The position numbers and the translations under genes were made by a program. This document shows positions 4,956 through 20,464 of a stretch of DNA of 22,417 nucleotides, one piece after another. Positions within the stretch are counted from its first letter, which is position 1. Each line of letters starts with the position of its first letter. Source of the stretch: a virus (Duplodnaviria > Heunggongvirae > Uroviricota > Caudoviricetes); IMG/VR virus record IMGVR_UViG_3300000301_000076; one strand, 5' to 3'. The notes under the pieces are model-generated. The model searched no databases, was not told the DNA's origin, and saw only the letters and a program-made list of their open reading frames with translations.

Positions 4956-5704
4956 TTCATGTGCAGCTTGGCGGCCCTATGGCCAAACATTTTGGCCGCC
5001 ACTGGCATCTAAAGGTGCGCAATACAAAACAGGCTCTGGATTTAATTGAGGCCAACAAGCCAGGGTTTAAAGCATGGATGAAGCGCAACATCAAAACCTA
5101 TGACAGATACCACATCCAGATCACCAATAANNNNNNNNNNNNNNNNNNNNNNNNNNNNNNNNNNNNNNNNNNNNNNNNNNNNNNNNNNNNNNNNNNNNNN
5201 NNNNNNNNNNNNNNNNNNNNNNNNNNNNNNNNNNNNNNNNNNNNNNNNNNNNNNNNNNNNNNNNNNNNNNNNNNNNNNNNNNNNNNNNNNNNNNNNNNNN
5301 NNNNNNNNNNNNNNNNNNNNNNNNNNNNNNNNNNNNNNNNCAGACGGTAGTAGGGGCCGCTTTGTTGGTTGTATCGGCGGTAATGATGCCTGCTTTAGCA
5401 CCTCTCGGTTTGTCACTAATGATGGGCGGCATATCACAAATAATATCGCCGCAAGCCACTAACGAAAGTGTGAGACAGGCAGATAACTCGAACTCTTATT
5501 NNNNNNNNNNNNNNNNNNNNNNNNNNNNNNNNNNNNNNNNNNNNNNNNNNNNNNNNNNNNNNNNNNNNNNNNNNNNNNNNNNNNNNNNNNNNCCCTCAAA
5601 ATACAGAAAACCAGGGCAACCCAGTACAACTTATCTATGGCGAGGAAATTCTGGTTGGCTCACAGGTTGTGAGTTCTTCAATCACGATTGACCAGCTAAT
5701 GTAA
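4943..5704 (+). CDS. I: Tail assembly protein I homologue (interrupted by N-runs 5131-5340 and 5501-5592)
   Basis: GTG start at 4943 with GGGAG 7 nt upstream, overlapping the K stop. The hydrophobic Gly/Ala-rich central segment resembles lambda gpI. After the last N-run the frame ending TAA 5702-5704 reads PVQLIYGEEILVGSQVVSSSITIDQLM, which matches the lambda I C-terminus (LPVLYGEMRVGSRVVSQEIS), so I prefer it to the ORF-track frame ending at 5691. Confidence 0.75.
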
Positions 5705-5721: not shown

Positions 5722-8700
5722 ATGGAACAGTTCAAGAAGAAAAAGCTACCGCTGTTTATTGCCGGTGCGGGTGGTAAAAAAAGCAGCAAAAGATCCAGCC
5801 GTACACCGGTTGAAGCCGACGATACCGTAAATTCTCGTGCAATGGCCGCTATCCTCGATCTTCTTGGGGAAGGGGTAATTGGCGGTTTAGTAAATGGCGC
5901 AAGATCTATTTTTATCGACGATCTGCCGATTGTAAATGAAGACGGTTCCTCCAACTTCAGCGGAATCACATGGGATTTTCGCGACGGTTCGCAAGACCAG
6001 ACTCCAATGTCTGGCTTTGATTTCGTTGAAACGCCTAAATCCGTCAATATCCAGTTAAAAAAAACACATTATGTAACGGTTTCAATCGATAACGATGAAG
6101 CTGATCGGGTTCGTGTCATCATGAAGTTTCCTTCTTTGCGAAGCATAGATAAAAAAACTGGTGACACGAACGGTACGACTGTTGAGTACAAGTTCCAGAT
6201 AGCAAATGGCGACTCAACATTTGTAGATGTGGTCGCTGAAGGTGAAAAAAGCGTTGGCATTAAGCTAACAGCAAAGAAGACCGGCGTTTATTACCGTAGC
6301 TATGAGCTGAAGCTGCCTAAGCCTGGACGAGCATACAAGGTTCGTGTGGTCCGTATTACCGATGATAACAGTAGCCAGTATCTCTATAACGATACATGGG
6401 TGGATTCAATCGGGGAAATTGTCGATACACCGATGAACTATCCAAACTCTGTTTTGGTTGGATTGAAGGTAAACTCTGAGCAATTCGGCAGCACCATGCC
6501 ATCTCGCTCTTATCTGGTGCGTGGCCTAAAAATTCGAGTACCTTCAAACTATAACGAGTCCAGTAACACTTACGCTGGGGTATGGGATGGCACTTTTAAG
6601 CTGTTGTCTTCTTCGAACCCCGCGTGGATTCTCTTTGATTTGCTGACCAATGCTCGATATGGCCTTGGTCAGTATGTGTCGGAATCTATGATTGACCTTG
6701 GCCAGTTGTACCAGATTGGTCGATATTGTGACGAAGAGGTCGATGATGGCTTTGGTGGCAAAGAGAAACGCTTTGCAATCAATACGCAGATCACCAGTCG
6801 ACAGGACGCATACCGGCTAATTCAGGATATTGCCGGAGCATTCCGCGGCATGGTGTTTTGGGCTGGTGGGATGGTTAACATCATGCANNNNNNNNNNNNN
6901 NNNNNNNNNNNNNNNNNNNNNNNNNNNNNNNNNNNNNNNNNNNNNNNNNNNNNNNNNNNNNNNNNNNNNNNNNNNNNNNNAGATCCGGTAATGATGTTTA
7001 CCAACTCTAACGTCAAAGATGGATTGTTTACCTATAAAGGTTCTGCGCGTAAAGATCGCCCATCCGTTGCGCTCGTAACCTACAACAACAAGGAGGACGG
7101 TTATAAGCAAAACATCGAGTACGTCGAAGATCAGGACGCAATGCGCCGTTATGGTGAGCGTAAGACAGAAGTCGTAGCATTTGGCTGTACAAGCCGAGGC
7201 CAGNNNNNNNNNNNNNNNNNNNNNNNNNNNNNNNNNNNNNNNNNNNNNNNNNNNNNNNNNNNNNNNNNNNNNNNNNNNNNNNNNNNNNNNNNNNTTTATG
7301 GCTTTTGTATACAGCCAGAATGGAGTCGGATGTAATTACATTTACTGCCGGCTTAGATGCGTCATTCCTGATGCCTGGTGAAACCGTTCTGATTCAGAAC
7401 AAATATCGCGCAGGCAAACGTAACTCAGGTCGAATTGTGGCGTTTACCAAAAACAGCGTCACACTCGATGCGCCTGTGTCGTTAGCCAAAGGCGGCTGCT
7501 TTATTCGAATACNNNNNNNNNNNNNNNNNNNNNNNNNNNNNNNNNNNNNNNNNNNNNNNNNNNNNNNNNNNNNNNNNNNNNNNNNNNNNNNNNNNNNNNN
7601 NNNCAAAATCGTTGAACGCGATGTTCTTGAAACTGGCGAAAATATAACAAAAGTTACGTTTTCAAAAGCCCTGTCTTCGGCTGAAACGCCTGTTTTGAAC
7701 GGCGTCTGGACTATTACAGAACCAGACCTCGAACCTATGCGCGTTCGCATTGTTAACATAGCACAGGGGGAAACGCCGGGTAGCTTTGACATCACCGCTG
7801 TTGAGAACAATCCGTCTAAATATGAGGCGATCGACAATGGTGCAACGCTTATCCCGCAGAATACGACGGTATTGGACCCGACTTATTCCAAGCCGTCTAA
7901 TTTGCAAATCACTGNNNNNNNNNNNNNNNNNNNNNNNNNNNNNNNNNNNNNNNNNNNNNNNNNNNNNNNNNNNNNNNNNNNNNNNNNNNNNNNNNNNNNN
8001 NNNNNNNNNNNNNNNNNNNNNNNNTGTCAGTAAAACTGACTGCAACATGGGAAGGGAAATCTCCAGAGTATTGGATCAGTTGGCGACGTTCTGATGAAAA
8101 CAATGTATCGAACTGGCAATCGGCGCGTGTAACCGAAGAGCAATACGAAATCGTTAATGTTGCGGAGAATGGACGCTACGACTTCCAGCTGTATGCGGTT
8201 TCATTCAACGGTAAAAAAACAGAGATTATCAGTACCGTTTATCAGGTGCTGGGCACAATGACACCGCCAGATGCCCCAACGTCATTAACGGCCGTTGGAG
8301 ACTATCGTAATGTGATACTGAATTGGGTTAATCCAGATTCGGTAGACCTTGATCACATTAATGTTTACGCATCCCAGACCAACAATCTGGATACAGCGAA
8401 ACTGATCGCAGAGTCTGCAAGCACCACCTTTACACATGCTGGTCTTGGGGATAGCGAAACGTGGTATTACTGGGTTCGTGCGTCAAACAAGCGCGGTATG
8501 TTGAGTCCTCCGAACTCAAACTTGGGTACAGAGGCGACGACTCGCGATGTGCTGTCGTTCCTGACAGGCAAAATTACGTCTTCTGAACTTGGCCAGACTT
8601 TACTTGAGGAAATCGACTCAAAAGTATCTCAGGAGGCGGTGGATTCCATCTATCAACAGATGGAAGAAAGTCTGAAAATCCTCGATGACAAATTTACAGA

Positions 8701-10463
8701 TGCCGATCAGCGGCTTGAAGAAGCTCAAAACAATCTTAAAACGGAAGTTTCCGGTACTGTCAGCAAGGTGGAAGACGCGCTTAAGGAGGTTGCAAACTCT
8801 AACGCTGCCTTAATTCAGTTGCAGGAAANNNNNNNNNNNNNNNNNNNNNNNNNNNNNNNNNNNNNNNNNNNNNNNNNNNNNNNNNNNNNNNNNNNNNNGC
8901 AGGGTAAAGCTGTAGCTGGAGCTGTTGAGGCGGCAAATGCAGCACTTGACAATTCATCGGCTTTAATTGCGGAGGAGCGTGAAGCACGAGTTGAGGGTGA
9001 CTTGGCAAACGCNNNNNNNNNNNNNNNNNNNNNNNNNNNNNNNNNNNNNNNNNNNNNNNNNNNNNNNNNNTCGAGGCGATGAAGTCAACTGTAGATAGCA
9101 GTTTAGCCACCATTGAAGAAATGAAAAAAACCGTGGCTGAAGTTGAACGTTCTAGTGCCGAAGTTACGACAAACATTGAGGCATTGGCTAAAACAAACAT
9201 CGATCTTGCTTTGCGTCAGGATGAAGATCAGCACAAGCAGATGGTGAGTAATGCGAAGATCACCACAACTCAGAAGGCTTTTGCAGACGATATATCTGCA
9301 ATGGCTACGAAAATGGAGGAAATTCGCGCTGAAATAAATGAGGATATCAGAGCTTCAATCACTGAAGAAACAACGGCTCGTGTAGATGCTGATAATGCTA
9401 TTGCAAGCAGAATCACCAAACTTGAATCAAAGATTAACGATGATATTTCTGCCGCAATTGTGAGTGAACAAGAGGCACGAGCTAGTGCCGATGAAGCACT
9501 TTCAAAAGAAATACTATCGTTACAAGCCAAAATTGAAGGCGATATTAGTGCAGCTATATCTGAAGAAAAAATTGCCCGAGCAACTGCTGATGAATCTTTA
9601 GNNNNNNNNNNNNNNNNNNNNNNNNNNNNNNNNNNNNNNNNNNNNNNNNNNNNNNNNNNNNNNNNNNNNNNNNNNNNNNNNNNNNNNNNNNNNNNNNNNN
9701 NNNNNNNNNNNNNNNAGATATTAAGGCGGCTGTAGCAGAAGAGACGAAAGCCAGAACTGACGCTGATTCGGCTTTGGCTTCTAGTATCACTAATCTACAG
9801 GCGCAAACGAGCAAAGATATTAATGCCGCGATTACGTCTGAGGCAACTGTGCGCACAAACGCCGACAATGCTCTAAGTGGACGAATTGACACCTTAAAAG
9901 CATCAGTTGATGGAAATACAGCGACAATTCAAGAGCANNNNNNNNNNNNNNNNNNNNNNNNNNNNNNNNNNNNNNNNNNNNNNNNNNNNNNNNNNNNNNN
10001 NNNNNNNNNNNNNNNGGCAACTGCTATTGCTGATACTAACAAAAAGGTTTCAACCGCGTGGACGTTGAAGATGGAAACGTCAACAAGTGGTGGGCAAAAA
10101 TATGTCGCAGGTATTGCGCTTGGAATTGACACCACGGGGCTTTCCCAGTTTTTGGTGCAAGCAGATCGATTTGGTCTAGTTAACTCAGTTAACGGAAAGA
10201 TCACCACACCATTTGTTATCGAAAACAGCGTTGCATACATGAATGGTGCGTATATTAAGGATGGTACTATCACAAATGCAAAGGTAGGTGACTTGCAATC
10301 AACAAACTTCGTAAGCGGACGAGTCGGATGGCGATTTGGTAAAAATGGAACGCTTGAGATCAACGGCAATAGTGGCGGCAATGGGAGATTGGTTATAAAT
10401 GGTCAGAGGATTGACGTTTATGATGACAATAATGTCCTTCGAGTGAGGATTGGTCAGCTTTGA
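5722..10463 (+). CDS. J: Host-specificity / central tail tip protein J homologue with an internal coiled-coil repeat insertion (many N-runs; frame changes at each)
   Basis: N-terminal 500 aa are collinear with lambda gpJ by recall (GITWDFRDGSQDQTP, YPNSVLVGLKVNSEQFGS, GLKIRVPSNYN, GVWDGTF, DGFGG, AFGCTSRGQ). Fibronectin-III-like segment at about 8027-8540. Near the C-terminus YVAGIALGIDTTGLSQFLVQADRF matches lambda J [28 protein letters not shown]. Coding is continuous across the gaps only if the N-runs are not length-preserving. ATG 5722 with AAGGA 10 nt upstream; stop at 10461-10463. Confidence 0.85.
9280..9938 (+). repeat. At least six tandem copies of a 33-codon (99-nt) repeat inside J (consensus D-I-x-A-A-I-x-x-E-x-x-A-R-x-x-A-D-x-A-L-x-x-x-I-x-x-L-x-A-x-x-x-x)
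   Basis: The periodic units are visible in the translation and the DNA (gatatatctgca, gatatcagagct, gatatttctgccgca, gatattagtgcagct, gatattaaggcggct, gatattaatgccgcg). Interrupted by N-run 9602-9715, so the copy number is a minimum. Confidence 0.8.
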
Positions 10464-10512
10464 TTGTGGAAAAAAATAATCATTTCTGTAAAAATAGGTA
10501 GGTACTAACTTA

Positions 10513-10537
10513 ATGGTGGGCATGGAACGCCCACCAT
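10513..10537 (+). other. Intergenic hairpin between J and the side tail fibre gene (atggtgggc / atggaac / gcccaccat)
   Basis: Perfect 9-bp inverted repeat with a 7-nt loop; no U-tract; followed by the RBS TAGGAG for the next gene. Confidence 0.4.
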
Positions 10538-10556
10538 ATCTAGGAGCAAAGGATAA

Positions 10557-13171
10557 ATGTGGTACAGGGAAGGTACAATAAATCTCACTAAAGGAAATAA
10601 AACTGTAGTGGGAACAGGCACAGCCTGGGGAGTGACGGCGAACGGCGTCCTTCCAGGTATGATATTGATTGGCCCCGATAATAAGTTATATGAAATAAAA
10701 TCAATCGAGAGTGACACTTCGTTAACTCTTGTTGAAGCCTACGGTGGTAGCACCCAAACAAATGTCCCGTGCAGAATAATTACGACCTATGAAGGTGATT
10801 TAACCCAATTTAGTGCTCGTTTTACTGCGCTTATGTCTCGCATGTCAGCCNNNNNNNNNNNNNNNNNNNNNNNNNNNNNNNNNNNNNNNNNNNNNNNNNN
10901 NNNNNNNNNNNNNNNNNNNNNNNNNNNNNNNNNNNNNNNNNNTCAAAAATGATGCGTAGTTGGTTGACTGCCGTGGATGAAATAACAATTGAGCGTGAAG
11001 ATGGCACGGAATTAACCGTAAAATCCCTTACGCAGATCGTTAATGAGCACAATGAGAACCTAGAATGGTATAAAGAAAATACTCCCATAATTAACACCGC
11101 TGCACAAAAAGCTAAAGAGGCGGCAGCGAGCGCAACAGCGGCCAAAAAATCAGAAACTAACTCAAAAGCGAGTGAGACAGCTTCAAAGACTAGCGAAACT
11201 AATGCGAAAAATAGCGAGGTAGCTGCAAAATCGAGTCAGAGTGCTGCCGCAAACTCCGCTACCGCAGCAAAAAACAGCCAGGATGCAGCAGCCGAAAGCG
11301 AGAGTGCTGCAGCTGGTTCTGCGACTTCAGCAGCTGGATCAGCAACTGCTGCGGCTAACAGCCAGAAAGCCGCGAAGACGAGCGAAACTAACGCAAAGTC
11401 CAGCCAGACGGCAGCGAAGACCAGCGAAACAAATGCCAAAGCCAGCGAAACTGCGGCGAAAAACAGTCAGGATGCAGCAGCCCAAAGCGAGAGTGCCGCA
11501 GCTGGTTCTGCAAGTGCGGCGGCTTCTTCTGCCTCTGCATCAGCCAACAGTCAAAAAGCTGCAAAAACCAGTGAAACCAACGCAAAGGCGAGCGAGACTG
11601 AGGCGGCTAACTCAGCGAAAGCATCGGCAGCAAGCCAGACGGCTGCAAAAGCAAGTGAAGACGCAGCCAGAGAGTATGCAAGCCAGGCTGCGGAGCCGTA
11701 TAAACAAGTTTTGCAGCCGCTTCCCGATGTGTGGATACCGTTTAACGATTCACTGGATATGATTACGGGCTTTTCGCCGTCATATAAAAAGATTGTTATT
11801 GGTGATGATGAAATAACGATGCCTGGCGATAAGGTTGTAAAGTTTAAACGCGCATCAACTGCCACATATATCAATAAATCAGGCGTATTTAGTGTTGCTA
11901 AAATTGATGAGCCACGATTTGAAAAAGAAGGTTTATTGATTGAAGGACAGCGCACTAACTATTTTGTTAAATCCAATATCCCCGCTGAATGGACGAGTAC
12001 CAGCAATATCGATAAAACTAATAATGGTGTTGATGAATTTGGTTTTTCATATGCCAAAATGCGAACAAAAGATAATATGACAGGACAATCATCTGCACTT
12101 AGTCTGCATACATGCAGTGCATCCCGGGGGATTGATGTTAGTGGCGATAATAAGTATTGCACTGTTTCATGCAGGGTTAAAGCTCCTGATGGTCTTCGTT
12201 GTCGTTTGCGTTTTGAAAAATACGATGGGTCGGTTTATACATTTTTAGGAGATGCTTATTTAACTTTCGGAACTCTGATAATAGAAAAAACTGGCGGAGC
12301 AGCCAATAGAATAGCAGCTACTGCAACTAAAGATCCGGTTACAGGGTGGATTTTCTATGAGGCAACTATAGAAGCTGTTGAAGGTGAAACCTTAATTGGC
12401 GCAATGATTCAGTATGCGCCGAAAAAAGGTGGTGTAACTGAAGCGGGAGATTATATTTACCTTGCAACACCACAATTTGAAAACGGCGGATGTGCTTCAT
12501 CTTTTGTTATTACGACAACTGTACCCGCAACCCGCTCCAGTGATATGGTGACGATCCCAACTGAAAATAATATCTATAATAGACCGCTTACGTGCCTGGT
12601 CGAGGTTAATAGAAATTGGGGCGATATTCCTCCTAATGTAGCACCGCGTATTTTTGATTTTTCTGGTGTGCCACCTATTGAGTCAATTACATACGCTTTT
12701 AACACAACTGAGAAATATTACGGNNNNNNNNNNNNNNNNNNNNNNNNNNNNNNNNNNNNNNNNNNNNNNNNNNNNNNNNNNNNNNNNNNNNNNNNNNNNN
12801 NNNNNNNNNNNNNNNNNNNNNNNNNNNNCGTCGACAAGTACTTACGTTTCTAGTGTGTTTGCTGGTCGAACTGATGTTCGAAAATTCATTGGTGGTTTTA
12901 ATATTTATTCTGATGGTACTAAACGAGTAGTTTCTAACGGTGAGGCTACTAAAACCATGAAAACGGAGTGGACGGGCGTAAAAACACGGACCTTTATTCG
13001 AATTGGAGGTCAAGCCACATCGGGAACTCGTCATCTATTCGGCCATTNNNNNNNNNNNNNNNNNNNNNNNNNNNNNNNNNNNNNNNNNNNNNNNNNNNNN
13101 NNNNNNNNNNNNNNNNNNNNNNNNNNNNNNNNNNNNNNNNNNNNNNNNNNNNNNNNGGCATAAAGAATTAA
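10557..13171 (+). CDS. Side tail fibre protein (receptor-binding fibre); 3' end uncertain (13171 or 13203 depending on the frame after N-run 13048-13156)
   Basis: ATG 10557 with GGAG upstream. Long Ala/Ser/Thr/Lys/Glu/Asn low-complexity segment with repeated KTSETNAK and NSQDAAA-SESAAAGSA motifs, as in the lambda Stf collar region, followed by a roughly 400-aa globular distal domain. The segments between N-runs are open in only one frame each. Confidence 0.7.
11270..11650 (+). repeat. Two near-identical direct repeats of about 190 nt inside the fibre collar region
   Basis: aaaaacagccaggatgcagcagccgaaagcgagagtgctgcagctggttctgc at about 11271 recurs as aaaaacagtcaggatgcagcagcccaaagcgagagtgccgcagctggttctgc at about 11460; the protein repeats AAKNSQDAAA(E/Q)SESAAAGSA...ANSQKAAKTSETNAK. 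Confidence 0.75.
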
Positions 13172-13199
13172 CTGATGCGCAAATGGGGGAGAGTATTAA

Positions 13200-13481
13200 A
13201 TGAAAGATTTAACGCTCAAATTTGCAGACAGGGCCGACTTTTCGGCCTTTATGGAGAGTATTGGCTATTATGATGACGAGTCGATGCAGGGTGATATTCT
13301 TATTGACGTGATAGGTAACGTGTACAAAGAAACCGGAGAACTGACTGAAGATGGCGAACCGGTATGTGTTAAGGAGGACGGATATTTTGTAAACGTGCGC
13401 ATCATTAATGATGCAAAAAAATCGTCAATATTCGATAAATACGCGATTGTTGTTGAGCATCAACTTCGTGGCTGGATGTGA
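13200..13481 (+). CDS. Hypothetical protein, 93 aa (possible fibre assembly factor by position only)
   Basis: ATG 13200 preceded by GGGGGAG; acidic soluble protein; lies between the fibre gene and the chaperone-domain gene. No family recognised. Confidence 0.45.
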   Translation: MKDLTLKFADRADFSAFMESIGYYDDESMQGDILIDVIGNVYKETGELTEDGEPVCVKEDGYFVNVRIINDAKKSSIFDKYAIVVEHQLRGWM

Positions 13482-13490
13482 GGGAGACAA

Positions 13491-14364
13491 ATGGCTACAT
13501 CGACAGTAATTCCAGGAGACATCACCACGTTAAAGGGAGATGTCAGTAAAGCCAAGGAAGATATTTCCTCAATTAACGGAAAAGTATCAACGCTTCAGAC
13601 TGATATGACCAGTGCAAAGCAGGATATCAGCACCAGATACACAAAAACTGAAGTTGATAATANNNNNNNNNNNNNNNNNNNNNNNNNNNNNNNNNNNNNN
13701 NNNNNNNNNNNNNNNNNNNNNNNNNNNNNNNNNNNNNNNNNNNNNNNNNNNNNNNNNNNAAAGTGGAAGTGAACGATCTGGAAAGTGGTCGTTATGGTGG
13801 AGATTTTTACCCGCTGACTGGTCGTGAAGCGTTTTATTTGTGGGGATTGGGCACGACTACAGCGGCGGCAAACCTTTATCTTAATCCTGACCCCGCAATT
13901 TCGTCTGTACTGCGGTCCACATCGTCTATCCGCTATAAACATTCAGTAGAGACGATAGATTCGGAGCACGCCGATCTCATTTTCAAGATGCGCCCTGTGT
14001 GGTACAGGTCGCAATGCGAAAATGACAGGCGCGATTGGGGATTCTATGGATTGATTGCCGAGGAAGTAGGAGAAATTGCCCCTCAGTTTGTTCACTGGCG
14101 AGCAGCTAACGAGAATNNNNNNNNNNNNNNNNNNNNNNNNNNNNNNNNNNNNNNNNNNNNNNNNNNNNNNNNNNNNNNNNNNNNNNNNNNNNNNNNNNNN
14201 NNNNNNNNNNNNNNNTTTCCAGCAATGGCCTTGTTGCCGAAGGTGTAATGTACGAACGTCTGGTTGTTCCACTGATTCACCATATCCAGAAACTGACTGA
14301 AAGAGTTGATGAACTTGAGTCAGAATTAAAGTTGTTATCAACTTCCCGAAGCGATATCGGATAA
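13491..14364 (+). CDS. Short fibre-like protein with N-terminal coiled coil and C-terminal intramolecular-chaperone (peptidase S74-like) domain; N-runs 13663-13759 and 14117-14215
   Basis: ATG 13491 with GAGGGAG upstream. The N-terminus has heptad-like repeats (TLKGDVSKAKEDISSINGKVSTLQTDMTSAKQDIS). The C-terminal part has the hallmarks I recall from endosialidase and T5 pb1 chaperone domains: a Ser-rich site (RSTSSIRYK), WGFYGLIAEEVGEIAPQFV, and a terminal Y-x-x-L-V-x-x-L-I-x-x-I-Q-K-L-x-x-R-V-x-E-L-E helix. Stop at 14362-14364. Confidence 0.6.
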
Positions 14365-14375
14365 AGGAGGAGTAA

Positions 14376-14739
14376 TGGATATAACACCTTTCCTTCATGC
14401 ACTTTGTGCTGTGGCTGCGCAGGTACTGGTTGGGNNNNNNNNNNNNNNNNNNNNNNNNNNNNNNNNNNNNNNNNNNNNNNNNNNNNNNNNNNNNNNNNNN
14501 NNNNNNNNNNNNNNNNNNNNNNNGGAAACTGGGCTTACGGGGCGATAGCCGGTTGTACGTTCTTCATTGCTCGTGAACATACCCAGGCAGAATATCGCTG
14601 GATTGAAATGTTCGGGCATGGCAAGCGAATGAATATGCCGTGGTGGGGCGGTTTTGATCCGCGCGCGTGGGATGTAGCAAGTCTGATGGATTTTGCGATT
14701 CCACTTTTAGCGTGCACATTATTATATATTTTTATTTAA
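14376..14739 (+). CDS. Small hydrophobic membrane protein, about 120 aa (N-run 14435-14523)
   Basis: ATG 14376 preceded by AGGAGG. Hydrophobic N-terminus (MDITPFLHALCAVAAQVLVG) and hydrophobic C-terminus (FAIPLLACTLLYIFI). Function unknown. Confidence 0.4.
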
Positions 14740-14831
14740 TATAAGATTAACTGAGATATAGCTTACGCAAAGAAGGTAATAAATATAAAGAGAGATGTTC
14801 TGAGGTAATTTATTGTTGGTGTTTAAGGTTA

Positions 14832-14861
14832 TTTACAGATAGGTAAGTGCATACCTATATA
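14832..14861 (+). promoter_or_regulatory. Candidate sigma70-type promoter upstream of the lysis cassette (TTTACA, 18-nt spacer, TATATA)
   Basis: Hexamers read directly from the sequence in the AT-rich 180-nt intergenic region about 60 nt upstream of ATG 14921; not validated. Confidence 0.3.
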
Positions 14862-14920
14862 AAAAAGATAAAATGTGATATAAATCCGCCATCCCGATTT
14901 GACTTTTCATGGAGGAAAAT

Positions 14921-15324
14921 ATGTCGAACGAGATGGCGGGCGTAACAACAGAGCAAGTTGAGCGCATTGCCGCGATCGTTGCTCGGGAGGTTGTCGGCAA
15001 ATTAGGTAAAGAGCTACGTGAAGAAATTGGCCAGGAGGTCAACGATCAGCTGAAAACCTACTTTGGTGATATGACCCCGGCGCAACATAGTATTCAACAC
15101 TCCAACCTGGACAAANNNNNNNNNNNNNNNNNNNNNNNNNNNNNNNNNNNNNNNNNNNNNNNNNNNNNNNNNNNNNNNNNNNNNNNNNNNNNNNNNNNNN
15201 NNNNNNNNNNGATTCCATCTCCAGTGGGTTCTTTGGCGGCATTGTTTCTAAAATAACGTCGTTCATTATTACCGCACTGCTTTTGGGGTTAGCCGCGTAT
15301 GGCGTGAAAAATGGACTGCAATAA
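14921..15324 (+). CDS. Holin-like membrane protein with a single C-terminal transmembrane segment (N-run 15116-15210)
   Basis: ATG 14921 with GGAGG 5 nt upstream. Hydrophilic charged N-terminus; the C-terminus after the gap reads FFGGIVSKITSFIITALLLGLAAYGVKNGLQ. Lies immediately upstream of the endolysin-like gene. The holin assignment is by position and topology only. Confidence 0.4.
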
Positions 15325-16606: not shown

Positions 16607-16714
16607 ACATTATTCTNNNNNNNNNNNNNNNNNNNNNNNNNNNNNNNNNNNNNNNNNNNNNNNNNNNNNNNNNNNNNNNNNNNNNNNNNNNNNNNNNNNN
16701 NNNNNNNNNNNNNN

Positions 16715-17290
16715 AGATTTTGTAGGATAGAACAAAGAACGCTCGTTGTTACCAACCAGCTGGATAAAGCCTAAACTTTTATAAAACGCCTTGGCTTTGT
16801 CATTTAACGCCTCAACGAAAAGTCCATGAATGCCTACAGCAAGAGATGCATTGTACACAACGCGCATTGCATGTGTTACAAGNNNNNNNNNNNNNNNNNN
16901 NNNNNNNNNNNNNNNNNNNNNNNNNNNNNNNNNNNNNNNNNNNNNNNNNNNNNNNNNNNNNATTGAGCCAAATCCTTGACCTTGAAGGGACTTGTCCAAA
17001 GCCAGCCTACCCAAAGTAACACTTGGAACATTCCGATAAGGAACCTTCTTTTGTTTGCTTCTTGAAGGTAAGGACTCCTTTTCAAAACAACTACCTGACA
17101 AAGTGTAATATCCTAACACTTTTGGCCTTTCTTCTTGAGTGCAAAGCACATAAGCACGAAGAATTTTTCCCTCATGCTGCCTTTTTAAGTGGTTGGCTAA
17201 AAAGGCGTTTAGTGACTCTTCGCCGCAATCAAAACCGTTTAGATCATAATCTTTCTCTCCAGAGAAAATCTCTATCGTTGTATTGCTCAC
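16715..17290 (-). CDS. GNAT-family acetyltransferase toxin, AtaT/TacT-like (3' end lies inside N-run 16617-16714; internal N-run 16883-16961)
   Basis: The translation is close to my recollection of E. coli AtaT (YDLxxFDCGEExLNxFL, KILRAYVLC, VLGYYTLSGSCFE, QKKVPYxNVPSVTLGRLAxDxSLQGQGFG, HAMxVVxxASLAVGIHGLFVEALNxKA, FYKSLGFIxLVG, FYPTKS). GTG start at 17290, 5 nt after the antitoxin stop. Confidence 0.85.
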
Positions 17291-17297
17291 GAGTAAA

Positions 17298-17567
17298 CTA
17301 CTCCATGCTTTTCAGACGATCAGCAGCTCGTTTCAGCTTGTCGTTCGGTGCCGGAGGATTGCTTATAGCGTCCATAACCAGATTCCAGGATTCTTCATTC
17401 AGAACTAGTCTACGGTGTTGCTCTATAACTTTCACGGCACGTTCAGATGCACTGCTAACCATAAACTGAGTAATGCTCTGGTTAGACATTGCGGCAGCTT
17501 CCTCGATGATGCTTTTATCGTCATCGGTTAATCTCAAATCGATGCGCTGCTTTTTTAGTGCTGACAT
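17298..17567 (-). CDS. DUF1778 ribbon-helix-helix antitoxin, AtaR/TacA-like
   Basis: MSALKKQRIDLRLTDDDKSIIEEAAAMSNQSITQFMVSSASERAVKVIEQHRRLVLNEESWNLVMDAISNPPAPNDKLKRAADRLKSME matches recalled AtaR almost along its whole length. Start taken at the internal ATG (17567) because AGGAGG precedes it; the ORF-track start at 17606 is rejected. Confidence 0.85.
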   Translation of the reverse strand: MSALKKQRIDLRLTDDDKSIIEEAAAMSNQSITQFMVSSASERAVKVIEQHRRLVLNEESWNLVMDAISNPPAPNDKLKRAADRLKSME

Positions 17568-17577
17568 GTATTCCTCC

Positions 17578-17605
17578 TGATGGCCGTGATGTAGGAAGGC
17601 CATCA
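17578..17605 (-). promoter_or_regulatory. Inverted repeat TGATGGCC-N12-GGCCATCA immediately upstream of the antitoxin RBS; candidate operator of the TA operon
   Basis: 8-bp perfect arms read directly from the sequence. TA operons of this family are autoregulated by the antitoxin-toxin complex binding palindromes at the promoter (established knowledge); the assignment here is inference. Confidence 0.35.
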
Positions 17606-17885
17606 ATCTCCTCTGTTCAAACTGAGTTTTCGACTCAAAAATTACTTTAAAAGGCTATAGCCCATTACGTGTGCATTATCAAATTGTGTACGGCATATCA
17701 CCGTACTTGTAATATAGAGGTCATTGTTACTTTTTTCAACAGACAAATACAAGCTATGATTGCCAATTGTTAACCACAACCTACCATTTAACCTTTACAC
17801 CGCAGCCGTAGGCATTTAGGCTATATCACATATAAGAAAACAAGTTGTTTCAGACGATAATTATATACGCAAAGGGAACTCTCCA

Positions 17886-18628
17886 ATGACCAAGATCTTT
17901 GTGGTTGGCGGCACAAAGGGCGGGCCTGGCAAATCCACCGTTGCCCAGCAAATTGCCGTTTGCCTGAAAGTCAAAAAGAAGAAGAAGGTTTATATTACCG
18001 ATATAGATATNNNNNNNNNNNNNNNNNNNNNNNNNNNNNNNNNNNNNNNNNNNNNNNNNNNNNNNNNNNNNNNNNNNNNNNNNNNNNNNNNNNNNNNNNN
18101 NNNNNNTGTGAAGACCGTCGACAGAACGAAGACCTTGAGCTGATTCCTTTTGCATACGTTCAGGATGACATCATTAAGCACCTAAAATCGCTTCAGGGTA
18201 GAGCTGAGTTTGTAGTGGTAGATGCTGGTGGCTTCGACTCCGAAATTCAGCGACAAGCGATGCTGATGGCTGACGTTATCATTATCCCGCTGCGTCCTAA
18301 GCGTCGTGATTTGAAATCTTTACGTGACATCGATCCTATTATCGACAATGTTCGCAATGTAAACGATAAAGTGAAGGTCCGCGCGGTCATGAACCAGTGC
18401 CCGGCTTTGCCATCACAAGTGTCTCGCATTCTGGCGGCTAAAGAGATTGTTGAGACGTTTGGAATCGAGTCTGCGCCAGTCAATCTATATAACCGCAACG
18501 TCTATGATGATGCGGAAGAGTCTGGTCGTTCTATCTTTGAAATGACCGGTAGCGAGCGCGACAAAAAGGCGGAAGCCGAGTTTGAAGAATTTGTAGATTA
18601 TCTGTTGAGTCTGGAGGAAGAAGAATAA
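17886..18628 (+). CDS. parA: ParA-family partition ATPase, small type Ib-like (N-run 18011-18106)
   Basis: Deviant Walker A at the N-terminus (VGGTKGGPGKST), VVVDAGG motif, about 245 aa. ATG 17886; stop overlaps the next start (TAATG at 18626-18630). Confidence 0.85.
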
Positions 18629-18987
18629 TGTCCATGAAAATGGGTGACCTAGCAAAGCGCAAAGAGCCTGATGCACCGGCTAAGAACACAACTCCTTTGC
18701 GCCAACCAGTCAGACCACAAGGACGCCCGACTCGTGGCAAAGAGAAAATTAAAAGCCGCACTATGTCACTGGAAGACGAATACTTCGAGCTTCTGGAAAT
18801 GATGAAGTTTATCCCTCGTTTCGAGAAGTTCACCCGCTCTGATGTGATTCGTGCTGCTATTTTCCATCTGGCAGAGAAGTCACCGCAGGAAATCGAGGAC
18901 ATCGTAAAGCTGAACGAGGCGATCACAGCTGCCGATGTCACGATGCGTACCGATGAAATTAAACGCGAGTTGATGAAGAAAGGTTAA
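18628..18987 (+). CDS. ParG-like centromere-binding protein (basic disordered N-terminus, C-terminal ribbon-helix-helix-like)
   Basis: 119 aa, Lys/Arg/Pro-rich N-terminal 45 aa, then a predicted strand-helix-helix segment (MSLEDEYFELLEMMKFIPRFEKFTRSDVIRAAIFHLAEKS). Translationally coupled to parA. Classic small ParA plus small partner architecture. Confidence 0.55.
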   Translation: MSMKMGDLAKRKEPDAPAKNTTPLRQPVRPQGRPTRGKEKIKSRTMSLEDEYFELLEMMKFIPRFEKFTRSDVIRAAIFHLAEKSPQEIEDIVKLNEAITAADVTMRTDEIKRELMKKG

Positions 18988-19018
18988 TAATGTGGGCTGT
19001 CTAGCCCACATTATTTTA
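18988..19018 (+). terminator. Rho-independent terminator after the partition operon (aatgtgggct / gtct / agcccacatt, then ATTTTAATT)
   Basis: 10-bp perfect stem, 4-nt loop, T-rich tail, starting 1 nt after the parG-like stop. Confidence 0.65.
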
Positions 19019-19038
19019 ATTAAAGTGGAGTGATAATT

Positions 19039-19869
19039 ATGCATTCGTTAGTATTTGCATTTAAAAACATACTCAAGAATGTTATAAACATACTAGGGAT
19101 GTTAAATATTTTTTTGTCTGTGAGGGTGAGGAGAAAAGATATAAAAGATAAATTAAAGGAACTTAACAAAGAAAAAGAACAATTAAAAAGCGAAGAAATT
19201 ATTATTGATTTATACAAGAAAAAACTCGCATCTAGCAAGGGGAAAGCTAATGATAAAATCAAAGGAAAAATAATTCACTATATTATTGCTAGAGAGTTGG
19301 GGAATGATCCTGATAATGAAGATTTGCGACATAATCTTTTTACAAAGATAAAAGAATCAGAAGAACAGGTTGAAGTTCTGGTTCATCAAAGAGAAGTAAG
19401 TGAGCAGGCGAACAAAAAAGAAACGGTTGTCAATTTGTTTTTATTGTATGAAAAAAATAAATTGTTTAAAGCTAAGGGGTTGGCTGTGTTTCTTATAGTT
19501 ATAAACTTAATTATAGTTGCGACTCTCGATCTTCCAGCTTGGTCATTGATTATAAGTTTTTTTATTCTCTCTTTNNNNNNNNNNNNNNNNNNNNNNNNNN
19601 NNNNNNNNNNNNNNNNNNNNNNNNNNNNNNNNNNNNNNNNNNNNNNNNNNNNNNNNNNNNNNNNNNNNNNNNNNNNNNNNATTCGTGTCTCTAAAGGATA
19701 TTTTGGCACAAGTGCGTATGAAGCGGTTCAATTGCTTAAATTCATCAGAGAAAATTCAGACAAATTTGACTCAGATGATAATGACGGTAGCCCACGACGG
19801 ATATTGAATCCGAAGGGAACAACAAAAAAATCAGACAACCTATTCGATAAAGGGTGGCAAAATGTTTGA
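19039..19869 (+). CDS. Hypothetical membrane-associated protein, AT-rich gene (N-run 19575-19680)
   Basis: ATG 19039 with TGGAG 9 nt upstream. Amphipathic N-terminus, Lys/Glu-rich coiled-coil-like stretch, hydrophobic block (GLAVFLIVINLIIVATLDLPAWSLIISFFILS), soluble C-terminal tail. GC is much lower than the flanks (about 30 percent by eye). No family recognised. Confidence 0.5.
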   Translation: MHSLVFAFKNILKNVINILGMLNIFLSVRVRRKDIKDKLKELNKEKEQLKSEEIIIDLYKKKLASSKGKANDKIKGKIIHYIIARELGNDPDNEDLRHNLFTKIKESEEQVEVLVHQREVSEQANKKETVVNLFLLYEKNKLFKAKGLAVFLIVINLIIVATLDLPAWSLIISFFILSXXXXXXXXXXXXXXXXXXXXXXXXXXXXXXXXXXXXIRVSKGYFGTSAYEAVQLLKFIRENSDKFDSDDNDGSPRRILNPKGTTKKSDNLFDKGWQNV

Positions 19870-20284
19870 CCTTGACGCCATCACTAAGTTCTTAAATCAG
19901 TGTTTTGATCTACTTTTGCTCAAGCAGCCTTTAAGAACTGTTTTCGGAATACTGATTGGTTTCATTATTTTTGTTTTTGTTTACACGTTTAGGTTTGCGA
20001 TAGCTCAAGATTTTTATGAAATAGATGGTGTGCATTACGCTGCATGTTTCGTCATCGGTGTTTTAGTTGTTCACACAAGAACATTTTTTGACGTTATCAA
20101 GGGCACCGCAGTTGATGAAGAAATAGATAGTATGATCAGAGTTATTACGAAGCAGCCACACCTATCTAACCATCAAAAAAACATAATGATTGCTGAAATA
20201 CTTCAAAAAGAAATTGCAGCCATAAGTCAAAAGAGATTGGATAAAGTTGCACAAGAAATAACGGAGAAAAAGACAACTGATTAA
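19862..20284 (+). CDS. Hypothetical small membrane protein (two predicted TM helices), translationally coupled to the upstream gene
   Basis: ATG 19862 overlaps the upstream stop (ATGTTTGA). Hydrophobic segments TVFGILIGFIIFVFVYTF and AACFVIGVLVV, then a charged C-terminal helix. AT-rich. No family recognised. Confidence 0.5.
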   Translation: MFDLDAITKFLNQCFDLLLLKQPLRTVFGILIGFIIFVFVYTFRFAIAQDFYEIDGVHYAACFVIGVLVVHTRTFFDVIKGTAVDEEIDSMIRVITKQPHLSNHQKNIMIAEILQKEIAAISQKRLDKVAQEITEKKTTD

Positions 20285-20464
20285 TTTAATTACCTGTTTC
20301 TGTATATAAATAATAAGTAACTTATTAAATATATATACGGAAGCAGGTCTTTTAAAAGACACCCACCAGAACAACTCCCTTCCGTTTCCACTTCCAAAAA
20401 CTGCCACCAGTCGCTATCATCCGCTCATTGTGATAAGTAAGTAACTACCTACCAGGTGAGCCAC

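Follow-up and report, generated by a model that had tools for sequence, protein, structure and literature searches.

The side tail fibre gene (stf) of the IMG/VR virus record IMGVR_UViG_3300000301_000076 raises the question of whether its receptor-binding part was acquired by recombination and, if so, from which kind of element and between which positions. The whole stretch analyzed here, 22,417 nucleotides (nt) long, is referred to as the window, and positions are numbered from its first letter; genes, domains, repeats, and the cassette described below lie on the + strand unless stated otherwise, and crossover intervals are given without a strand. A first-pass annotation of the window had read the fibre as a mosaic whose receptor-binding domain was swapped in by recombination at a conserved repeat region. 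Comparison with phage-plasmids and chromosomal prophages points to a larger exchange, in which a cassette of approximately 2.8 kb appears to have been exchanged by homologous recombination between a phage-plasmid and a lambdoid prophage, a reading to which we assign a probability of roughly 0.78.

The alignments assign the window to an SSU5/pLF82-like Escherichia coli phage-plasmid, of which it spans the tail and partition region. Collinearity extends over the whole window, both to the circular 108-kb record PhiR41_1, which carries ParA and a primase, and to IncFIB-typed E. coli plasmids of 105–110 kb (e.g., pMTY12368_pLF82); identity to these plasmids is 98–100% at 9700–11130 and 91–100%, mostly 97–100%, from 14524. 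Replicons of SSU5-type phage-plasmids have been typed as IncFIB (10.1101/2025.09.12.675607). The stf gene (10557..13203) is collinear with genes annotated as Stf or "phage tail protein" in relatives and is set in a phage-plasmid tail module, with L, K, I, and J upstream and partition genes nearby, including a ParA-like gene at 17960–18628. The gene that precedes it encodes a J-like central fibre, in which the J C-terminus (PF09327) was matched at 9774–10463. Three runs of the letter N (10851–10942, 12724–12828, and 13048–13156) interrupt stf; filling them from the closest relatives yielded a reconstructed Stf of 795 amino acids (aa), residues 2–794 of which matched positions 16–793 of the 793-position profile phrog_1419 ("tail protein") with 1120 bits.

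Mapping the probable cassette exchange

The whole gene was searched against 50,697 phage records, 72,556 plasmids, and 5,426 complete E. coli genomes. The three collections agreed that positions 10557–11130 match phage-plasmids only, whereas 11131–13203 matched lambdoid phages and chromosomal prophages (94.6% identity for PhiR49_1 and 96.6% for E. coli MLI114). No record in the phage, plasmid, or complete E. coli genome collections covered the whole of stf at the DNA level, so collinear homology of the entire fibre to a single relative, which would have argued against a mosaic, was not found. An identity scan in 100-nt steps resolved the same pattern: phage-plasmids were 98–100% identical up to about 11200, the heptad repeats that follow formed a patchwork of 93–99% identity to both element classes, and from 11700 the identity to MLI114 was 100%, whereas phage-plasmids faded near 11860–11970 and resumed at 14524. 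The segment 11700–12723, hereafter the distal allele, is 100% identical to chromosomal prophages of CFT073, IAI39, CE10, and MLI114.

The choice of reference proved important for locating the switch points. Esc11 plasmid 2 is the best phage-plasmid reference for the shaft, with 98.2% identity over 10943–11720, a single difference (11770) within 11630–11856, and complete divergence from 11857; pAVS, pMTY, PhiR41_1, and YF8 were set aside as references because each left the left breakpoint diffuse (11290–11730), Esc11 being cleaner. On the lambdoid side, MLI114 was considered as the donor and would have given a tract of just 1.5 kb (11678–13213) ending at the stf stop codon. It was superseded when a pattern scan of IMG/VR turned up closer lambdoid prophages, the closest of which, designated L009, was used and carries the tract to 14696. 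Over 11602–14696, L009 differs from the window by 5 mismatches in approximately 2,600 determined bases (99.8% identity), and its Stf begins MAAVKISGVLKDG, which is of the lambda StfN type.

A three-way comparison, in which sites that differ between the Esc11 phage-plasmid and L009 were scored in the window, supports a mosaic fibre that gained its receptor-binding part through recombination in the conserved repeat region. Up to 11446 the window is of phage-plasmid type at 54 of 56 informative sites, and from 11463 to 11896 it is of lambdoid type at every informative site counted (Fisher p = 2e-18 for this switch). Further downstream, the five informative sites at 14526–14682 are all of lambdoid type, and every site from 14697 is of phage-plasmid type. 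The left crossover interval is thus 11447..11462 (16 nt), between the last recipient-type site at 11446 and the unbroken donor-type run from 11463; it falls inside the heptad shaft, at the border of two 189-nt units, and within the N-free piece 10943–12723. The right crossover interval, 14683..14696 (14 nt), separates donor-type sequence up to 14682 from recipient-type sequence from 14697 within the N-free piece 14524–15115, and it sits where the homology shared by the two element classes runs out, lambdoid homology stopping at 14696.

The exchanged cassette delimited in this way, 11463..14682, holds approximately 2.8 kb of real sequence and corresponds to L009 positions 10300–13130. Within it lie the 3' half of the shaft and all of distal stf, followed by an ORF (open reading frame) of 93 aa, a fibre gene with an S74 domain, and most of an ORF of about 95 aa. 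The distal part of stf was rightly placed in the swapped unit at first reading; that unit is, however, about 2.8 kb with half the shaft and three downstream genes, not the proposed kilobase of roughly 1 kb.

Such an exchange would have taken place in a cell in which the phage-plasmid and a lambdoid prophage were both resident, by a double crossover or a long gene conversion. The nucleotide-conserved shaft (11267–11856), over which Esc11 and L009 are about 97% identical, would have served as the left homology arm and the small downstream ORF, through its 3' part, as the right-hand arm. Given that the shaft is heptad-periodic, in-register crossovers anywhere along it would give a functional fibre, and out-of-register ones would give length variants. 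The phage-plasmid would be expected to take on the adsorption specificity of the donor prophage family.

As for direction, the distal allele was found at a query coverage of at least 80% in 226 of the 5,426 complete E. coli genomes and in none of the 72,556 PLSDB plasmids, where no plasmid exceeded about 70% identity over it. Since many chromosomes carry the allele and none of the plasmids searched does, transfer from prophage to phage-plasmid is the parsimonious direction and, on these counts, the likely one. The combination of alleles is itself absent from the collections searched. A junction signature joining phage-plasmid-type shaft to allele-specific distal sequence matched the window itself and nothing else in IMG/VR, JGI metagenomes, or GTDB representative genomes, a weak negative given that the signature demands 94 exact bases and a single-nucleotide polymorphism would hide a relative.

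Competing explanations

Several observations weigh against the proposed exchange or against parts of it. Left of the switch, sites 11251 and 11437 are donor-like and break the pattern; neither relative has the base of the window at 11191 or 11601, nor at 11431, which does not count as an informative site. Esc11 and L009 are just the nearest relatives found and need not be the true parents. RecA-type recombination normally favours identical stretches longer than the crossover intervals of 16 and 14 nt, so mismatch-repair patches or slightly different parents must be assumed. The case for the direction of transfer consists of allele frequency, and the C-terminal domain of the fibre is not confidently folded in the structural models; moreover, the trimeric state, the coiled coil, glycan binding, and the change in host range are all properties that we infer. 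Finally, 25 runs of N that resemble mis-sized gaps raise the possibility that the source is a draft assembly, where sequences can be joined chimerically.

These runs deserve attention, as they bear on the leading alternative. They measure 58–210 nt each and 2,463 N altogether (2699–2784 and 5131–5340 are examples outside stf), and every one is about 80–90 nt longer than its counterpart in close relatives (3–124 nt), so that they look like mis-sized scaffold gaps. Within stf, alignment indicates that runs of 92, 105, and 109 N stand for just 3, 26, and 18 nt in relatives. The over-long runs shift the reading frame, which is why the ORF list breaks stf into 10557–10952, 10949–12853, and further fragments; a Pfam scan of the raw 634-aa ORF gave no match, the ends of that ORF being artefacts of the N runs. 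Caution is thus warranted wherever ORF calls or composition profiles are taken from such a sequence, as both are distorted.

An assembly chimera is an unlikely explanation, albeit the strongest of the alternatives. It would require that the source genome or metagenome contained a phage-plasmid with a stf cassette of its own alongside a lambdoid prophage and that the assembler or scaffolder switched between them in two shared stretches. The 25 N runs, each some 80–90 nt too long, are typical of a short-read scaffold, both switches lie in sequence common to the two element classes, and the combination is found nowhere else. However, the switches are located inside contiguous N-free pieces (10943–12723 and 14524–15115) rather than across gaps, and Esc11-like and L009-like parents would share exactly no more than 16 and 14 nt at these points, below usual assembly k-mers, while a much longer identical stretch of 140 nt (11630–11769) was left unused. 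Two independent errors that together restore a collinear backbone would also be needed.

A different history of the same sequences is slightly less probable than an assembly error. The cassette could be native to an unsampled phage-plasmid lineage and have been exported to lambdoid prophages, or the two element classes could have taken it independently of each other out of a common pool. All phage-plasmid and lambdoid relatives share the four-gene cassette architecture with many alleles, the shaft is a patchwork in every relative, and an identity of 99.8% is by itself silent on direction. Yet the frequencies given above, 226 of 5,426 complete genomes against none of 72,556 plasmids, run the other way, and in lambdoid prophages the block continues unbroken into lambdoid-specific shaft sequence 5' of 11266. 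Movement of the cassette from prophage to phage-plasmid remains the preferred direction.

Base composition, on which the first-pass annotation had leaned, turned out to be a real feature with a different meaning. Guanine–cytosine (GC) content was recomputed without N, as a profile that counted N in the denominator gave spurious troughs (e.g., 24% at 12650–12949). On this basis the whole window has 45.3% GC, 11750–12720 has 39.5%, close to the 38% estimated by eye, and the heptad region 11130–11700 has 54.6%; composition is therefore not uniform. Only 9.3% of 971-nt intervals are at or below 39.5% GC, and all others of these lie at 18.4–19.8 kb, which makes 11750–12720 the only low-GC kilobase of the tail module. 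The GC content at third codon positions (GC3) of the distal part is 28.7%, compared with 40–50% in other tail genes, so the contrast is real at synonymous sites. The high GC of the heptad region is due to codon position 2, which reaches 68% through the Ala and Ser codons; GC3 there is an ordinary 43%. However, six relatives have 40–44% GC and 28–38% GC3 between PLPDVW, the motif that opens the distal module, and the stop codon, beside a proximal part of 49–55% GC, and the resident distal allele of the Esc11 phage-plasmid is as low (40.1% GC, GC3 28.6%). Since the distal module of every allele is low in GC, whatever element carries it, the GC step is a family trait that is expected with or without a swap, and it is not diagnostic of this one as the first-pass annotation had supposed. 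Taken literally, the GC argument would have the distal domain arrive recently in this particular phage from a low-GC organism. This reading, for which 39.5% GC and 28.7% GC3 against 45% and 40–50% in the neighbouring tail genes might speak, is very improbable and contradicted as an account of this event, because all alleles are similarly low, the step beside the GC-rich shaft recurs in all six relatives examined, and part of the contrast stems from the Ala/Ser codon composition of the shaft. A GC step of this kind should accordingly be treated with caution, as a property of the module family and no marker of a recent swap.

Architecture of the fibre and its surroundings

The fibre begins with an N-terminal domain of phage-plasmid type (10557..11095, aa 1–150), which is 98–100% identical in pLF82/SSU5-like phage-plasmids and missing from lambdoid prophages. 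It has no Pfam match, and PF08400 (lambda StfN) was not found when sought in the ORFs of the window and in the N-terminal 177 aa. From its position, this domain would be the tail-attachment anchor that docks on the tail tip.

An Ala/Ser-rich shaft follows (11096..11695, aa 151–350). It consists of 28 uninterrupted heptads that follow the pattern A-A-K-x-S-E/Q-T; Ala makes up 36% and Ser 21% of the residues. The heptad array explains the 21- and 42-nt periodicities reported by repeat finders. Two tandem 189-nt units (11261–11449 and 11450–11638), each of 63 codons or nine heptads, are superimposed on this array; at an offset of 189 nt the best 150-nt stretch reaches 78% identity, compared with at most 63% at all other offsets. 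The direct repeats of 190 nt noted earlier as near-identical are hence real and above background, but they are only 71% identical over their full length and 78.5% over the best 149 nt, with a longest exact run of 15 nt and 46 of 63 residues matching at the protein level. The two units of lambdoid relatives are more alike (85%, exact run of 29 nt). The lambda Stf-type motif KTSETNAK, whose presence had been correctly noted in essence, occurs four times in this Stf (aa 181, 244, 258, and 307), although the reference lambda orf-401 contains KTSETNA twice and KTSETNAK never. The shaft region shares about 41% amino acid identity with lambda orf-401 over 239 aa, and no nucleotide match between this region and orf-401 was found at E ≤ 1e-5.

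In Ur-lambda Stf, the N-terminal domain (residues 1–91) forms the collar and residues 102–393 form a trimeric proximal coiled coil (PMC12617516). By that layout the repeat region, called a collar in the first-pass annotation, corresponds to the proximal coiled-coil shaft, and its sequence identifies it as a homologue of the Ur-lambda proximal coiled coil. The AlphaFold2 model places long helices in the shaft at low confidence, and the Stf is probably trimeric by analogy.

Whether the shaft is recombinogenic can be judged from the relatives, and at the population level the sequence evidence says yes. In every relative the shaft is a patchwork of short tracts, relatives drop homology at recurrent positions, and alleles that share an identical distal part of 446 aa differ by one 63-aa unit (736 versus 799 aa, with a single 63-residue gap). 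With a longest exact run of 15 nt, the 189-nt units in this copy are too diverged to be good recombination substrates. The view of this region as recombinogenic repeats thus holds for the shaft across the population and not for the repeats as such, the crossover having used homology between the elements rather than the intragenic repeat. Separately, when P0006 and P0002 were compared with MLI114 Stf, a 44-aa shaft deletion was seen in one allele, in addition to the clean 63-aa (nine-heptad) insertion/deletion among these proteins; as 44 is not a multiple of 7, this deletion would shift the heptad register by two residues.

The shaft leads into a conserved adaptor, PLPDVWIPFNDSL ... DEPRFEKEGLLIEGQRTN (11717..11935), in which invariant or near-invariant alignment columns cluster. 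The adaptor starts at (Q)PLPDVW, a module boundary that is seen across unrelated fibres. The same distal module is fused directly at this motif after a PF03406-type shaft in P0098 and, in P0033, after an Mtd_N-like N-terminus that has another coiled coil. It therefore follows lambda-type, PF03406-type, and Mtd_N-like N-terminal parts and is always joined at (Q)PLPDVW.

Beyond the adaptor lies a variable β-sandwich domain with a ConA-like lectin fold (11936..12538, aa 431–631), a "GTA head spike fibre" domain (GTA, gene transfer agent). Residues 431–631 matched the NCBIfam profile of that domain, NF048003, over positions 1–181 of 182, with 54.3 bits against a cut-off of 36. Whole-chain AlphaFold2 models were poor, with a mean predicted local distance difference test (pLDDT) score of 56.7 and 61.6, so that only the middle domain can be interpreted; no other part is modelled well, block-mean pLDDT here being mostly 83–93. 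Its model shows a β-sandwich jelly-roll, and its structural neighbours are β-sandwiches. Of the lectin-like and depolymerase folds considered for the distal region, the prediction favours the former, a ConA-type β-sandwich. A search of PDB sequences gave a marginal match only, to RcGTA Rcc01080 (E = 0.15). That protein, the head spike fibre of RcGTA, attaches to capsular polysaccharide (PMC10218006). Taken together, domain homology and fold predict that the receptor, which this domain and the C-terminal one would both bind, is most likely a surface glycan or polysaccharide.

Other receptor-binding mechanisms were considered. No parallel β-helix or depolymerase family was matched in Pfam or NCBIfam, and neither AlphaFold2 model contains a β-helix; a depolymerase tailspike was rejected on these two grounds, and a lambda-type OmpC-binding tip was rejected because no homology was found. 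Enzymatic activity is conceivable in principle, since PL7 and GH16 enzymes share the sandwich fold.

The fibre is completed by a C-terminal β-rich domain (12539..13203) that contains two N gaps and ends in IRIGGQ..G.RHLFGH.RNLRLWHKELTD. It is probably LamG-like, with a LamG-like signature closing the last 160 aa: Laminin_G_3 (PF13385) scored 18.7 bits over the C-terminal 63 residues only, below its gathering score of 27.6, and the AlphaFold2 model of the domain is β-rich with block-mean pLDDT of about 40–71. In the phage-plasmid Stf P0037, only the C-terminal domain is of the window type, joined at a conserved ATR(S/A)SDMVTIP linker, which indicates that the C-terminal and middle domains are exchanged separately.

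Three genes follow stf within the cassette. The 93-aa ORF (13200..13481; phrog_1361) holds a conserved position in both element classes. The second fibre gene (13491..14248), which encodes about 234 aa in relatives and contains N runs at 13663–13759 and 14117–14215, has a coiled-coil N-terminus followed by a Peptidase_S74 intramolecular chaperone domain (PF13884); this family was matched both in the window fragment and in the MLI114 orthologue, and relatives annotate the product as "tail fiber domain-containing protein." About 115 aa would remain after S74 self-cleavage. The small conserved ORF of about 95 aa (14375..14739, coordinates mapped from relatives) contains an N run at 14435–14523. 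In the E. coli MLI114 chromosome (L005, 9301–11200), reverse transcriptase and SLATT-domain genes lie directly downstream of the donor-type cassette; they look like a retron or another defence system in a prophage moron position.

Variation was also observed elsewhere in the window. The distal part of the J-like gene (8618–10020) is 99–100% identical to pAVS0747-B, pMTY12368, and YF8, whereas against PhiR41_1 the same stretch is 68–82% identical or unaligned, the J gene of PhiR41_1 being longer (4608 versus 4161 nt); this divergence makes the central fibre a second mosaic host-range determinant among these phage-plasmids. Further downstream, 16610–17606 holds a TacA-like antitoxin (PF08681; 17298–17606, − strand) and the adjoining ORF 16610–17290 (− strand), at which place relatives annotate a GNAT-family acetyltransferase toxin; the pair is missing from PhiR41_1 at the corresponding place. 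The only other low-GC stretch of the window, 18426–20300, with 971-nt intervals down to 32% GC, is probably a variable accessory insert: 18992–20291 has no match in PhiR41_1, and the ORFs 19030–19869 and 19862–20284 have no Pfam match.

Relation to known systems and biological meaning

The closest systems on the recipient side are the Stf proteins of SSU5/pLF82-like elements (pAVS0747-B, pMTY12368_pLF82, Esc11 plasmid 2, and PhiR41_1). Their N-terminal approximately 300 aa are 98–100% identical to those of the window, and the gene order is the same (J, stf, 93-aa ORF, S74 fibre, 95-aa ORF). They differ from about 11463 on, where the window allele is found in no phage-plasmid examined, and they carry other middle and C-terminal domains, at about 65–70% nucleotide identity or unalignable. 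On the donor side stand the Stf proteins of lambdoid prophages (MLI114 WP_097511355, PhiR49_1, CFT073, IAI39, CE10, and IMG/VR UViG_2512047041), which are annotated as "prophage tail fiber N-terminal domain-containing protein" and whose distal 446 aa are 100% identical to the window. These have the StfN/PF08400 collar domain, lie downstream of lom, and are integrated, whereas the window has an unrelated N-terminus on a plasmid-prophage backbone.

More distant comparisons place the gene in a wider context. Ur-lambda Stf (PDB 9E7M; PMC12617516) resembles it in lying next to J, in its Ala/Ser heptad shaft with KTSETNA motifs, and in being built modularly, from an anchor, a coiled coil, and a distal part that binds the receptor. 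Unlike Ur-lambda, the window is without the PF08400 anchor, the gp37-like distal coiled coil, the OmpC-binding tip, and the tfa gene; no Tfa was found among the genes downstream of stf, which are the phrog_1361 ORF, the S74-domain fibre, and the 95-aa ORF. These comparisons assign the gene to the Stf family of phage-plasmids (phrog_1419), and it departs from the lambda family in its anchor, its distal part, and the absence of a Tfa gene. RcGTA Rcc01080 (PDB 6TB9; NF048003) shares the domain that passes the NF048003 cut-off; however, it is located on the capsid rather than the tail, is a distant relative at the domain level, and is not among the top structural matches listed.

Tail-fibre exchange is known among unrelated phages such as P2, lambda, and Mu, and Tetart et al. 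(1998, cited in PMC10879196) reportedly described the swapping of T-even gp37/gp38 adhesins by recombination between conserved motifs. The present case follows the same logic, with crossovers in conserved sequence on either side of a hypervariable receptor-binding segment. It differs in its partners, an extrachromosomal phage-plasmid and an integrated lambdoid prophage, which represent different lifestyle classes, and in its left arm, which is a heptad-repeat coiled coil instead of His-box or Gly-rich motifs. The mechanism itself is textbook tail-fibre mosaicism; what is new is the allele combination.

Statistical analyses have revealed that genes move between phage-plasmids and phages (PMC10879196), and the window would add a concrete case, a natural exchange between a phage-plasmid and an integrated prophage with both crossovers mapped to 16 nt or less. 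Engineered N-terminal chimeras of lambda Stf work (PMC11338833). The heptad shaft, the (Q)PLPDVW boundary, and the ATR(S/A)SDMVTIP linker are natural register-safe fusion points that may be useful for chimeric Stf delivery particles (PMC11338833). We further propose, tentatively and as a possibility that we hold far less firmly than the exchange itself, that the conserved Ala/Ser shaft is a "universal joint" between lambdoid prophages and SSU5-type phage-plasmids, temperate phages with no other relationship, a recent transfer through which is captured here. If so, whole host-range cassettes, made up of distal Stf and accessory fibre genes, could move between chromosomal and plasmid-borne elements with the heptad register intact, and this phage-plasmid would have taken over the adsorption specificity of a group of prophages that is frequent in extraintestinal pathogenic E. 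coli (e.g., CFT073, IAI39, and CE10).

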